The notes beneath the pieces are model-generated. The model made no database searches. It saw nothing but the letters and a program-made list of their open reading frames with translations, and was not told the origin of the DNA. The position numbers and the translations under genes are program-made. Source: Candidatus Amesbacteria bacterium RIFCSPLOWO2_01_FULL_48_25 (GTDB lineage Bacteria; Patescibacteriota; Microgenomatia; CAZETR01; Amesbacteraceae). From it: a stretch of DNA of 47,106 nt. Positions 22,021 through 47,090 of the stretch are shown here, piece by piece. The number at the start of each line of letters is the position of its first letter. Position 1 is the stretch's first letter. The stretch lies in contig MEXN01000003.1 of assembly GCA_001773695.1 (NCBI GenBank), positions 91,547-138,652 of the forward strand. The letters run 5' to 3'.

Positions 22021-23337
22021 CTATGCCTTGGGGAGAATTTTGTCTTTGCCCATGTAGGGGCGGAGGACTTCGGGAACCGTGACAGAACCGTCGGGGTTTT
22101 GGTAGTTATCCAGAATGGTGACGATCATTCGCCCCATAGGAATTCCAGTGTCGTTGACAGAGTGAACATATTTTTTTTGACCGGTATTTACATACTGGAT
22201 ATTCATTCGCCTGGCTTGGTAATCCCAGGCGTCGGTGTTGGAGCCGAGTTCTATAAACTCGCCTTGAGTCGGAAGCCAGCCCTCAAGATCGTATTGTAAA
22301 TAGGTAGCATTGTAGCCACAATCGCGAGAGCATTTGTTGATTACTCTGTAGGGAAGTTTTAGCTGCTGCATTAACCATTCATTAATTCCCCGTAAATATT
22401 CCATCATCTCCCGCGATCCTTCTTGTGTAGTCAGGGCATCTATTTCCAGCTTGTCGAACTGGTGGACACGTTTGACTCCCCTGACGTCTTTGCCCCAGGA
22501 GCCGACTTCTGAACGGAAACATTGGGTGTAAGCAAAGAATTTCTTTGGTAAGTCTTTTTCCTTGAGGGTTTTGTTCATGTAATAAGCAAAGAGCGGAGGC
22601 TCGGAGGACCCGACTAAAAAGAGCCGTTGTTGATTTTCCACATTGTGTGTTTCGATTTCGTAGACTTGATCACGGCCTTCTGGAAAATGGCTTGTCCCAA
22701 ACAAGACTTCTTCTTTTACTAAAACCGGAACGATCATGGGCTCAAAACCTTCGGATATTAATTTATTTTTAAAAAGTTCAAACAAGGCAAATTGGAGTAA
22801 GGCCGCGTCTCCCTTTAGGTAAGCAAAACGGGAACCTGAGGTCAGGGCACTTTGCTCGATATCAATGATGTCCAACTTTTTACCGAGGTCGACGTGGTGC
22901 AAGCCGGTCTTTTTTGGCATGTGTTGGGCGCTATTTAATCCTTTACCTAATTTGGATTTGGGCAAATAACCCTCGCTTGGGAGCCAAACAGCCAGCTCGA
23001 CGTGGTCCGGGTCACCGTTTCCTTCCGGCATATCCGGTGAGGACATATTTGGGATCCTCGCCAGTAAATCTCTTGCTTGCGTTTTGGCAATTTCCAAATT
23101 GTCTTCTAATTTTTTCAGTTTCTCTCTTTGAGCACGAAGTTTTTTGAGTTCTTCTGGAGTTGGCTTAGTGCCAGGTTGGAGATTGCGTAAAGCACGAATT
23201 TCCTCTACTTGTTTGAGCAGCTTGAGGTAGTGTTTGTCTGCTTCCAAAGCCTGGGCTACCGATATTTTGCCACCACGAAAATCAACGTTTTTTTGAACTA
23301 AGTCTGGTTGTTCACGAATAAGCCTGATGTCGATCAT
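22021..23337 (-). CDS. serS: Serine--tRNA ligase
   Basis: MIDIRLIRE coiled-coil arm, SGSRF, CFRSEVG, RVHQFDKLE, DYQARR, DGSVTVPEVLRPYM. Confidence 0.97.
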   Translation of the reverse strand: MIDIRLIREQPDLVQKNVDFRGGKISVAQALEADKHYLKLLKQVEEIRALRNLQPGTKPTPEELKKLRAQREKLKKLEDNLEIAKTQARDLLARIPNMSSPDMPEGNGDPDHVELAVWLPSEGYLPKSKLGKGLNSAQHMPKKTGLHHVDLGKKLDIIDIEQSALTSGSRFAYLKGDAALLQFALFELFKNKLISEGFEPMIVPVLVKEEVLFGTSHFPEGRDQVYEIETHNVENQQRLFLVGSSEPPLFAYYMNKTLKEKDLPKKFFAYTQCFRSEVGSWGKDVRGVKRVHQFDKLEIDALTTQEGSREMMEYLRGINEWLMQQLKLPYRVINKCSRDCGYNATYLQYDLEGWLPTQGEFIELGSNTDAWDYQARRMNIQYVNTGQKKYVHSVNDTGIPMGRMIVTILDNYQNPDGSVTVPEVLRPYMGKDKILPKA

Positions 23338-23951
23338 ATAGCTTGCTTTGCTAAATCTGATTCTAAACCTTTTAGATGGCTGGTGTCATTAAGATAAATG
23401 ATTTTGGCTGGGCTGTGAGTCTCCATTAGAGTAACGGCTGTGGGCTGCATAGCCAAATGCCATATTTTGTCCAAATCCAGTTTCAATAGATAGCAAAGTA
23501 TTACCTGAATAATATTGGCGTGGGTAACGGCCGCGAAAGTGCCAGGCTGGTTAGCCAGGTTGTCAAACCAGTTGATAGTCCTGGTGGCAGTATCCGCAAA
23601 GGATTCGCCGCCGGGAAAAGTGGCAAGGCTCGGGTGAGTCTGCCACTTTTGATAAAGGTCCGGCCAGGTGGCCTGGATTTGGGCTTTGGATTTGCCTTCC
23701 CACTGGCCATGGTTGGTTTCGAAAAGGGCTGGTTCGTCCGTGGAACCGCCTAAGGCTGCTGCCGTTTGGCGGGTACGTTTGAGGGGACTCGTAAAAACTG
23801 CGTCGGGCTTTTCTGACTTGAAGCGGTTTTTAAGAGCTTGGGTTTGAAGACGACCGAGGGGAGAAAGGTCCGTGTCATATGACTGGCCCTGATAAATCCC
23901 GGCAGTGTTGGCTACCGACTCAGCGTGACGAATAAGATATATTTTGGCCAT
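23334..23951 (-). CDS. Histidine phosphatase, probable metal-independent phosphoserine phosphatase
   Basis: RHAES, SPLKR, ETNHGQWEG, GGES, VTH, LNDTSHL...AI. Start at ATG 23951 directly after the leader terminator; overlaps the serS start by 4 nt. Confidence 0.85.
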   Translation of the reverse strand: MAKIYLIRHAESVANTAGIYQGQSYDTDLSPLGRLQTQALKNRFKSEKPDAVFTSPLKRTRQTAAALGGSTDEPALFETNHGQWEGKSKAQIQATWPDLYQKWQTHPSLATFPGGESFADTATRTINWFDNLANQPGTFAAVTHANIIQVILCYLLKLDLDKIWHLAMQPTAVTLMETHSPAKIIYLNDTSHLKGLESDLAKQAI

Positions 23952-23978
23952 GAAAAAAACCGCTGGTGTTGCGGTTTC
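23952..23978 (-). terminator. Intrinsic terminator of the T-box leader
   Basis: gaaaccgc aacacca gcggttttttt. Confidence 0.8.
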
Positions 23979-24080
23979 AGGTGCCACCTCAACTAATGCT
24001 CAATTTAAAGCTATTACGGGCTTTCCCGAACCGGTTTTTGACCCCGGTCAGCTTGACAGTTGGAAGCTGTCTTATACGCT
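23952..24080 (-). ncRNA. Miniature T-box riboswitch, serine-specific
   Basis: Stem GACAG-CUUCCAA-CUGUC with UCC; CGGG-AAAG-CCCG hairpin with downstream GCUUU; GGUGGCACC; terminator AAACCGC-N7-GCGGUUUUUUU; TATAAT at 24096-24091. Confidence 0.8.
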
Positions 24081-24689
24081 TTGTGTGTTGATTATAGCGT
24101 ATTTGGGGAGGTTTTGAAAGGGATTGTTGTCAAATGTAATATTTGAGACTTTGTCCAGAACTTCGTCTATTGAAATATGGTAAACGTCAGCAAAGATTTC
24201 AGCAGCTGCGGTGATGATTTTCTTGTCCCAACTAAAGCCTAATTTGGTTGCTATGTCCTTCACTTTCTCTTCCGATTCGGCTTCGATTTCCGAGTATGGC
24301 TCAAGTCCTGGCCAAGTATCTATGGTAATTTCTGCCCCTGCGTACTCCCAAGATTCTCTAAGTGTTTCCTGATATCTTTCGGGTTTATAGCCCATTTGTT
24401 CGAAGATTTGAAGAGTTTTGTCATAGTTACTTACTTCAACGTCCACTTCTTTTTGATCACTAAGTGACCCAGTCTGGGAAGCGTGGGTTTTGGCACTGAG
24501 ACTGATTAAATTACCTTCGTCTCGGACCCGAATGTAATGGCACTTAAATTCCTGGTGAAACCTAGCGTCAAAAATCGCCCGGCGCATTTTACGCTCGGGA
24601 ATAACTAATTTTGCACCAATACTCTTCAGTTTTTGACGGTATTTGTCTTTGTTTACCGGGTAAAACTTGGCTTCGAATTCAGTGTCCAT
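24072..24689 (-). CDS. CYTH-domain (triphosphate tunnel metalloenzyme) protein
   Basis: N-terminal EFEAK (ExExK), IRVRD, YQETLRESW, ITIDTWPGL, SEIE. Confidence 0.9.
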   Translation of the reverse strand: MDTEFEAKFYPVNKDKYRQKLKSIGAKLVIPERKMRRAIFDARFHQEFKCHYIRVRDEGNLISLSAKTHASQTGSLSDQKEVDVEVSNYDKTLQIFEQMGYKPERYQETLRESWEYAGAEITIDTWPGLEPYSEIEAESEEKVKDIATKLGFSWDKKIITAAAEIFADVYHISIDEVLDKVSNITFDNNPFQNLPKYAIINTQSV

Positions 24690-27781: not shown

Positions 27782-27855
27782 TGACCCCGGAGGGATTTGA
27801 ACCCTCGATTTTCTGGATGAGAACCAGATGTCCTGGACCACTAGACGACGGGGCC
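27782..27855 (-). tRNA. tRNA-Glu (CTC)
   Basis: GGCCCCG/CGGGGTC acceptor stem, TCTGG-TTCTCAT-CCAGA anticodon arm, GGTTCAAATCC T arm; CCA not encoded. Confidence 0.95.
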
Positions 27856-47019: not shown

Positions 47020-47090
47020 TGGGGGATCTGCTAACGGTAGGCATACAGACTCTGAATCTGTCAATCTAGGTTCGAATCCTAGTCCCCCAG
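47020..47090 (+). tRNA. tRNA-Gln (CTG)
   Basis: TGGGGGA/TCCCCCA acceptor stem, ACAGA-CTCTGAA-TCTGT anticodon arm, GGTTCGAATCC T arm; CCA not encoded. Confidence 0.95.

Follow-up and report, generated by a model that had tools for sequence, protein, structure and literature searches.

Can a T-box riboswitch that lacks the distal part of Stem I, Stem III and helix A2 still regulate an aminoacyl-tRNA synthetase operon by transcription attenuation? The question is raised by the leader that precedes a histidine-phosphatase gene and serS, the gene for seryl-tRNA synthetase, in Candidatus Amesbacteria bacterium RIFCSPLOWO2_01_FULL_48_25, an organism of the candidate phyla radiation (CPR). The leader lies on the minus strand of a 47-kb stretch of contig MEXN01000003.1 (positions 91,547 to 138,652; hereafter the window), itself part of the 0.94-Mb genome referred to below as G000. 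A preliminary description, made from the sequence alone, had interpreted this region as a miniature serine T-box in which an ultrashort Stem I is coupled to a terminator. The serine T-box reading is supported by homology, by covariation and by the mutual agreement of codon, discriminator and gene; the sequence evidence points to a genuine, conserved serine T-box of reduced architecture which most probably acts by attenuation on the phosphatase-serS operon. Taken as one claim, namely a reduced-architecture serine T-box controlling that operon by transcription attenuation, the reading is considered likely, tRNA binding, charge sensing and the termination output being the components that we infer.

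Anatomy of the leader

All of the elements listed in the preliminary description were found on the minus strand where it had placed them (Table 1). Stem I comprises 31 nt in total and presents the specifier in its tip loop. It is followed by a reduced Stem II and by the Stem IIA hairpin with its IIB partner, the IIA region including an F-box-like CCCGUAAUAGC (CCCGUA) which resembles the F-box CCGUCA quoted in a passage of PMC7583486. By analogy, the purine-rich AAAUUGAG that directly follows the pseudoknot may replace the purine string which, according to the same passage, flanks Stem III in T-boxes (PMC7583486). The two strands of helix A1 pair at six of seven positions, with one A.G opposition, and close a 12-nt antiterminator loop, UGGCACCUGAAA, that contains the sensor. 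The A1 3' strand (23974-23968) and the terminator 5' strand AAACCGC (23977-23971) have CCGC in common, the first three U of the U7 run pair within the terminator stem, and a single base separates that run from the start codon of the phosphatase gene, an ATG at 23951. The sensor extends over approximately 114 nt, and approximately 130 nt separate the predicted start of transcription from the end of the U run, the size claimed previously. When folded, the 146-nt leader returned a z-score of -2.14, with 4 of 200 shuffled sequences folding as well.

ARAGORN located a tRNA-Ser(GGA) on contig C10 of G000, with G73 after the acceptor stem and CCA not encoded; therefore both UCC and UGGC fit that tRNA. 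As had been proposed, specifier and discriminator agree with serine, UCC complementing the GGA anticodon and UGGC matching G73.

Table 1. Features of the leader and of the adjoining genes, in positions of the window
Feature	Position	Strand	Remarks
Leader	24118-23953	minus	span of all listed elements, promoter-like site included; between CYTH-domain gene and histidine-phosphatase gene
Ultrashort Stem I	24050-24080	minus	5+3 bp; AGC 24080-24078/GCU 24052-24050, GACAG 24071-24067/CUGUC 24059-24055
Stem I tip loop	24066-24060	minus	CUUCCAA, 7 nt
Specifier with following purine	24061-24064	minus	UCC 24064-24062, A 24061; matches anticodon GGA
Reduced Stem II	24030-24048	minus	5-bp hairpin; ACCGG 24048-24044/CCGGU 24034-24030, 9-nt loop GGUCAAAAA
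Stem IIA and IIB partner	24007-24028	minus	hairpin CGGG-AAAG-CCCG 24028-24017; CUUU 24010-24007, pseudoknot with loop AAAG
Purine-rich motif AAAUUGAG	23999-24006	minus	directly after pseudoknot; AAAUURAG-type in nearly all rows of alignments A7 and A8
Antiterminator	23968-23993	minus	A1 5' strand GUUGAGG 23993-23987, A1 3' strand CCGCAAC 23974-23968; no helix A2
Sensor	23986-23980	minus	UGGC 23986-23983, then ACC 23982-23980
Terminator-like hairpin and U run	23953-23977	minus	AAACCGC-AACACCA-GCGGUUU 23977-23957, U7 23959-23953; CCGC shared with A1 3' strand
Promoter-like site	24091-24118	minus	TTCAAA 24118-24113, TATAAT 24096-24091; within CYTH 3' end
CYTH open reading frame	24689-24072	minus	Pfam CYTH; upstream neighbour of leader
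Histidine-phosphatase-family gene	23334-23951	minus	205 amino acids; Pfam His_Phos_1, 1.5e-47; first regulated gene
serS, seryl-tRNA synthetase	22021-23337	minus	438 amino acids; Pfam Seryl_tRNA_N and tRNA-synt_2b; second gene

Homologous serine leaders

A blastn search with 161 nt of the leader gave matches (E < 1e-8) beside serS in 10 of 26 relatives of the same family. The first covariance model (R1) was based on a seed alignment of eight leaders (A5), that of G003 having been cut after the sensor; MAFFT alignments A1, A3 and A4, in which Stem I or the A1 3' strand was out of register, were unused, and alignment A2 misplaced the 3' strand of G003. At E <= 1, R1 had matches in 22 of the 27 family genomes, with a single match in G000. 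Reading of the aligned hits and of the open reading frames behind them gave 16 leaders whose tip loop contains UCC-A and whose sensor reads UGGCA(C/U)C; next in line is the histidine phosphatase (n = 8), serS itself (n = 7) or the end of the contig (n = 1), and tblastn placed serS 0.05-0.7 kb downstream of 12 of them.

With a second model built from 22 leaders (R2) and a limit of E <= 0.001, matches of any specificity were obtained in 35 of the 151 genomes sampled from the class; among 24 loci read from that search there were seven new UCC/UGGC leaders before serS or the phosphatase, including one in a 17th family genome (G001). Leaders of the serS type were thereby recorded in 17 of the 27 family genomes and in six further genomes of the class. 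The preliminary description had named loss of UCC and UGGC from homologous leaders as grounds for giving up the reading; all 23 have kept the UCC-A of the tip loop and the sensor's UGGC, a count to be read in the knowledge that the models carry both motifs in their consensus and that the same models also retrieved other codons. Stem II and IIA/B are missing from the relatives in G002, G041 and G024.

The third model (R3) was derived from alignment A8, which holds class hits of other genomes and excludes the row from G000. It gave a single match in the window, at 24081-23968 on the minus strand (96.5 bits, E 1.4e-20), and a single match in the whole genome. A regular-expression motif scan of the genome returned many chance matches and one convincing site, this leader.

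Covariation of the helices

The check for covariation among serS leaders that the preliminary description had called for was conducted on alignment A7 (22 leaders, 528 cells, pseudoknot added), using 500 shuffles and five measures. Pairs were recorded in 93.6% of cells as against 70.7% in the shuffles, a figure obtained from an alignment which was fitted to the structure of the model and so leans towards it; none of the 500 shuffles reached any of the five measures, and 26 of the 28 pairs exhibited changes on both sides. Inner Stem I and the base of Stem II were each paired in 100% of cells, with both-side changes in 5/5 and 4/4 pairs respectively; the corresponding values were 97.4% and 3/4 pairs for IIA, 97% and 6/6 pairs for A1, and 65.6% and 4/4 pairs for the IIB pseudoknot.

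The covariation signal is argued to be real because of a control and of variants read by hand. Sliding the partners by 1-3 columns lowered pairing to 32-43%. Helix A1 was encountered as GUUGAGG/CCGCAAC, CUUCAGC/GCGGAAG and UUCUGGA/UCCAGAA, and the compensatory variants of IIB included AAAG/CUUU, UUAG/CUAA (G016), UGAC/GUCA (G008) and a three-pair CCG/CGG (G006). The IIA/B-like pseudoknot of the preliminary description is thus upheld by compensatory changes in several genomes, with the reservation that IIB is paired less often.

Specifier, discriminator and gene across amino acids

The specifier and the N of UGGN were found to shift together with the downstream gene across leaders for Ser, Val, Asp, Ile, Ala and Pro. 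GUC-A with UGGU preceded valS at two loci confirmed by NCBIfam (L068 and L089) and, by N-terminal likeness, at three others (L087, L088 and L082); GAC-A with UGGC preceded aspS (L090, L085 and L086) and also an aspartate aminotransferase gene (L141); AUC-A with UGGU preceded ileS (L076 plus five class loci); GCC-A with UGGU preceded alaS (L131); and CCG or CCC with UGGU preceded csaA and proS (L129, L134, L143 and L145), the Ala and Pro cases coming from genomes of the class. The identity of ten representative downstream proteins was confirmed by NCBIfam. Two loci of the class fitted poorly, one with AAC and UGGU before an aspS-like gene (L136) and the other, with a badly aligned Stem I, before thrS (L138). 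In other bacteria the tRNAs of Val, Asp, Ile, Ala and Pro bear A73 or G73; the check in G000 covered tRNA-Ser.

These results bear directly on the possibility that there is no riboswitch here at all, but a CYTH terminator, a promoter and an untranslated leader whose likeness to a T-box is due to chance. The hairpin stands 95 nt after the CYTH stop codon and could end the CYTH transcript, and the standard T-box model RF00230 is negative at the locus (vide infra). Such an account is nonetheless barely credible when set against the fact that in relatives the leader accompanies serS or the phosphatase rather than CYTH, the joint variation of codon, discriminator base and gene across six amino acids, and the strong covariation of the helices.

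Leaders with further codons were also met with. Four (L073, L084, L074 and L079, from G004, G022, G041 and G019 respectively) have a short Stem I of the same kind with CGC (Arg) at its tip, to which are added one more hairpin and, farther downstream, a canonical GGGUGGUACCGCG; they precede proteins of unknown family (of 445 and 466 amino acids, for example). Another (L137, G067) combines UGC (Cys) in the tip loop with a UGGA sensor, and precedes a 260-amino-acid protein with an AHSDD motif that we take to be reminiscent of the PIG-L/LmbE deacetylases.

Proposed mechanism and alternative outputs

In the mechanism proposed, transcription would start a few bases downstream of TATAAT, and UCC in the tip loop of the short Stem I would read tRNA-Ser(GGA), assisted by the small Stem II and the IIA/B pseudoknot. 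With uncharged tRNA, the 3' GCCA would pair with UGGC, which helix A1 (GUUGAGG/CCGCAAC) encloses in a loop, and formation of A1 would keep CCGC from the terminator, allowing RNA polymerase to read into the operon. With charged or absent tRNA, the more stable AAACCGC/GCGGUUU hairpin and its U run would bring transcription to a stop 2-6 nt before the ATG.

The calculated energetics are compatible with such a switch. ViennaRNA assigned -4.5 kcal/mol to A1 alone and -8.1 to -8.8 kcal/mol to the terminator hairpin, the 3' domain reaching -12.3 kcal/mol with a mini-hairpin that also buries part of UGGC; when the transcript was cut before the terminator 3' strand, the best fold contained A1. The layout of A1 and terminator is as expected if the 3' end of an uncharged tRNA, by pairing with UGGC and stacking on it, tips the balance to A1 and hence to readthrough. 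That the terminator 5' strand can alternatively pair with GUUGAGG, as first suggested from the sequence of G000, agrees with the CCGC common to both structures and with the covariation of A1 in all its pairs. A1 is followed by a hairpin and U run in most class matches and in 8 of the family's 16 leaders of the serS type, the terminator 5' strand overlapping A1 by 2-5 nt in related leaders.

The same hairpin comes to an end 2 nt before the ATG, and the last base paired in it is 5 nt upstream; in a full-length mRNA the hairpin could occlude the landing site of the ribosome. A genuine T-box might in that event have a translational output, either as its main or as an additional one, the tRNA-stabilised A1 fold leaving approximately 17 nt upstream of the ATG single-stranded. 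No Shine-Dalgarno (SD) sequence was found upstream of the ATG at 23951, the GCGGUUUUUUUCAUGG that precedes it being without a purine-rich SD, and the published T-boxes with ultrashort Stem I, as a passage of PMC7583486 presents them, are translational. Furthermore, no terminator was detected in 7 of the 15 family serS-type leaders with downstream sequence (the 16th running into the end of its contig), the ATG following 12-46 nt after A1; so the sensor evidently can couple to an output other than termination, which brings the kinds of output served by it to at least two. For the leader in G000 itself a translational output is nevertheless judged unlikely: U7 directly after a stem containing G-C pairs is the signature of an intrinsic terminator and recurs among the family leaders and class matches as described above, the distance of the recurring hairpin and U run from the start codon varies from 16 to 74 nt, and the leader offers neither an SD nor an anti-SD pairing for sequestration.

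In five of the terminator-less leaders (G007, G021, G002, G041 and G024:C23) the A1 3' strand reads GCGGAAG and, where the sequence extends as far as the start codon (that of G024:C23 does not), this follows 12-14 nt later. The leaders L069/L122 (G007), L070 (G021), L078 (G002), L042 (G041), L057 (G024:C23) and L142 (G001) all lack a terminator and have CUUCAGC/GCGGAAG as A1; in five of these the start codon at that distance is preceded by no visible SD, and L057 ends 11 nt after A1, short of any start codon. Those from G002, G041, G024:C23 and G001 are also without Stem II and pseudoknot, such that approximately 85 nt are left.

A layout unlike that of G000 was observed in L072 (G006) and L123 (G162), where the sensor itself (GGCACCU or GCACCUC) is the 5' strand of the terminator and pairs with an AGGUGCU or GAGGUGU that lies downstream, ahead of the U run. 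From these sequences it appears that the 3' end of the tRNA would compete directly with the terminator in both.

Missing parts and the standard T-box model

Transcription attenuation by a serine T-box thus remains the preferred interpretation of the leader, and has to be weighed against a number of observations that tell against it. Among these are the parts that are missing. The 13 nt (AAAUUGAGCAUUA) between pseudoknot and A1 contain no conserved hairpin that could be Stem III, and merely UGAAA occupies the place of helix A2 between ACC and the A1 3' strand, a position taken in relatives by UGAGA or UGGGA, or by a real A2 hairpin. The preliminary description had spoken of almost no A2 helix; it was right as to the reduction, but helix A2 is wholly absent and Stem III is absent too. 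The leader is also without an elbow-binding distal Stem I and a recognisable S-turn, and Stem I's base, K-turn-like GA/GA in 10 of 22 relatives, here reads AA/AA.

To these may be added the properties of the terminator. It is modest (7 bp, of which 4 are G-C), and a simple terminator scan did not list the 23977-23957 hairpin, at a guess because greedy extension of the stem consumes the U's. The absence of any terminator from the seven family leaders already described belongs here as well, and in G012, G003, G013, G022 and G008 the overlap with A1 is confined to 2-3 A-U or G-C pairs at the base of the terminator, so that simple competition between strands appears weak in those five.

Finally, the Rfam T-box model RF00230 (gathering score 93 bits) found nothing in the window at that score, nothing in 23850-24200 even at E <= 10, and nothing in the genome as a whole, which bears out the earlier suggestion that the standard model might miss this leader. 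RF00230 exceeded its cut-off in 0 of the 27 family genomes and gave sub-threshold matches in 20 of them (best 85.8 bits), among which there were none of the serS-type leaders of the family. Two of these sub-threshold matches were inspected and found to possess a long Stem I with the distal motifs AGAGA and GGUUGGUGAAAGC, a Stem II, a Stem III, an CGGGAAAAGCCCG IIA hairpin and GGUGGUACC; AGAGA and GGUUGGUGAAAGC are both absent from the leader in G000. Long-Stem-I members having been found in the family, canonical and miniature T-boxes therefore coexist in the lineage, and when canonical T-boxes of relatives are aligned with RF00230, the same CGGGAAA(A)GCCCG hairpin falls on its IIA/B positions.

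The remaining Rfam matches (RT-6, OrzO-P, Trp leader, isrK and CRISPR-DR36) were far below their gathering scores and were treated as chance. That to RT-6, which is antisense in the CYTH gene (24104-24167, plus strand), reached 19.5 bits (E 0.054), the gathering score being 46.7, and is probably fortuitous.

So many omissions invite the view that the leader is the relic of a decayed T-box, no longer sensing charging and serving either as a partial terminator that acts constitutively or as an ordinary 5' untranslated region. It is without elements which, in passages of PMC7583486, are named indispensable (Stem III) or, in the case of the G.U pair at the foot of A2, regarded as what primarily senses the aminoacyl group by steric means; its K-turn motif is degenerate; and it is the one T-box-like element of G000 in genome searches with RF00230 and R3, relatives having several (before valS, aspS, ileS and others). 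Yet UCC-A, UGGCACC, AAAUUGAG and the pairing of A1 are conserved, with compensatory changes across genera, and loops of the A2-less UGRRA type are met with again in Ser and Asp leaders whose A1 sequences differ. Such conservation, compensation and recurrence would scarcely be expected unless function were under selection, and decay is accordingly regarded as improbable, though less so than a chance resemblance.

There being no helix A2, the published G.U steric gate is therefore lacking. This leads to a bolder proposal, put forward tentatively and with its chances set slightly below even, that a sensor of approximately 114 nt could detect the charge of a tRNA and drive termination with neither elbow platform nor Stem III nor A2, by a more economical geometry at the tRNA 3' end, and that leaders of this kind constitute a widespread CPR class invisible to the standard model. 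If that were true, a UGRRA cap would stand in place of A2 and the purine string would be positioned directly by the pseudoknot; relatives are smaller still, at approximately 85 nt with neither Stem II nor pseudoknot.

Promoter, operon and neighbouring genes

The TATAAT that had been noticed inside the end of the CYTH gene is indeed located there, and a promoter scan paired it with TTCAAA across a spacer of 16 nt (10/12 matches). Of 46 aligned leaders, 35 have a TAnA(A/C/T)T hexamer no more than 32 nt upstream.

The preliminary description had made serS the downstream gene, which is true of the operon, although its first position is occupied by the histidine phosphatase and serS comes second; the start of serS overlaps the phosphatase stop by four bases (ATGA). 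The phosphatase is the first gene behind the Ser leader in G000, in seven other family genomes and in two genomes of the class (G162 and G047). Its NCBIfam matches are all sub-threshold, the best being to ribazole phosphatase (130 bits) and to the phosphoserine phosphatase PspA (121 bits, against a cut-off of 350 for PspA). SHMT and one 2-hydroxyacid dehydrogenase are present in G000; serC (TIGR01364) was not found there, so that a role as phosphoserine phosphatase is a guess.

Proteins 74-83% identical to the serS product of G000 were recorded in G007, G023, G013, G024, G018 and G017. The next relatives (44-48% identity) were mostly from outside the CPR (Terriglobia, Dehalococcoidia, Gemmatimonas and Latescibacterota); a single record, at 46%, was from Patescibacteria. 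A second type of serS, approximately 40% identical to the first, occurs within the family, and G023 has both. The same leader precedes either type, accompanied in some genomes by the same phosphatase gene, which suggests that serS has been replaced in place within the family.

The window also contains two tRNA genes located by ARAGORN, namely tRNA-Glu(CUC) at 27782-27855 on the minus strand and tRNA-Gln(CUG) at 47020-47090 on the plus strand.

Significance and comparison with known T-boxes

A literature search found no paper describing T-boxes in CPR or Patescibacteria and, judged by titles and abstracts, none in which an ultrashort Stem I is combined with a terminator. The interest of the leader lies mainly in its missing parts and in its being undetectable by the standard model. 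A conserved, covarying family that has an ultrashort Stem I and terminators but neither Stem III nor A2 challenges review statements on the parts that are required, and the leader offers a small natural construct with which the requirements for the Stem I platform, Stem III and A2 could be tested. The results would further extend T-box regulation to the candidate phyla radiation, indicate that Rfam-based annotation overlooks such leaders, and link an uncharacterised histidine phosphatase to the status of serine or tRNA-Ser; small tRNA sensors may also be useful as engineering parts.

As set out in the passages of the literature drawn on here, transcriptional T-boxes "generally require" a long Stem I (PMC7583486, and likewise PMC11297988), the platform of which serves for fast capture of tRNA. 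An ultrashort Stem I is there described as a feature of translational T-boxes, mostly from Actinobacteria (PMC7583486), and the class II model of TBDB was applied to Actinobacteria and to truncated class I hits (PMC7778990).

With canonical class I T-boxes (RF00230; tyrS and glyQS of B. subtilis), the leader in G000 shares a specifier followed by a 3' purine, a UGGN-ACC sequence matching the discriminator base, an A1 helix exclusive with an intrinsic terminator, a IIA/B pseudoknot with the F-box-like CCCGUA, and a position before an aminoacyl-tRNA synthetase operon. It differs from them in that the specifier, which in class I occupies an internal loop of a long Stem I, is here in the tip loop of a 5+3-bp hairpin, and in having no distal double-T-loop elbow platform, a Stem II of 5 bp, no Stem III and no A2.

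The actinobacterial class II T-boxes of ileS (Mycobacterium and Nocardia; Sherwood, Grundy and Henkin 2015, as related in parts of PMC7583486 and PMC11297988) are alike in their terminal-loop specifier and very short Stem I, in the lack of an elbow platform, and in retaining a Stem II region and IIA/B pseudoknot. By way of contrast, they are described as acting on translation by SD sequestration, whereas the leader in G000 has a terminator and no SD, and as keeping an S-turn Stem II, a Stem III and an A2 that is often enlarged, all of which are here reduced or absent. They are also specific for Ile rather than Ser, and belong to Actinobacteria rather than to CPR of the Amesbacteria type.

The glyQS T-boxes, in the account that PMC7583486 gives of them, provide a precedent for the dispensability of whole domains, being naturally without Stem II and IIA/B, as are the relatives in G002, G041 and G024. 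They nonetheless keep a long Stem I with elbow platform, a Stem III and an A2, which are the very parts that the leaders described here have lost.

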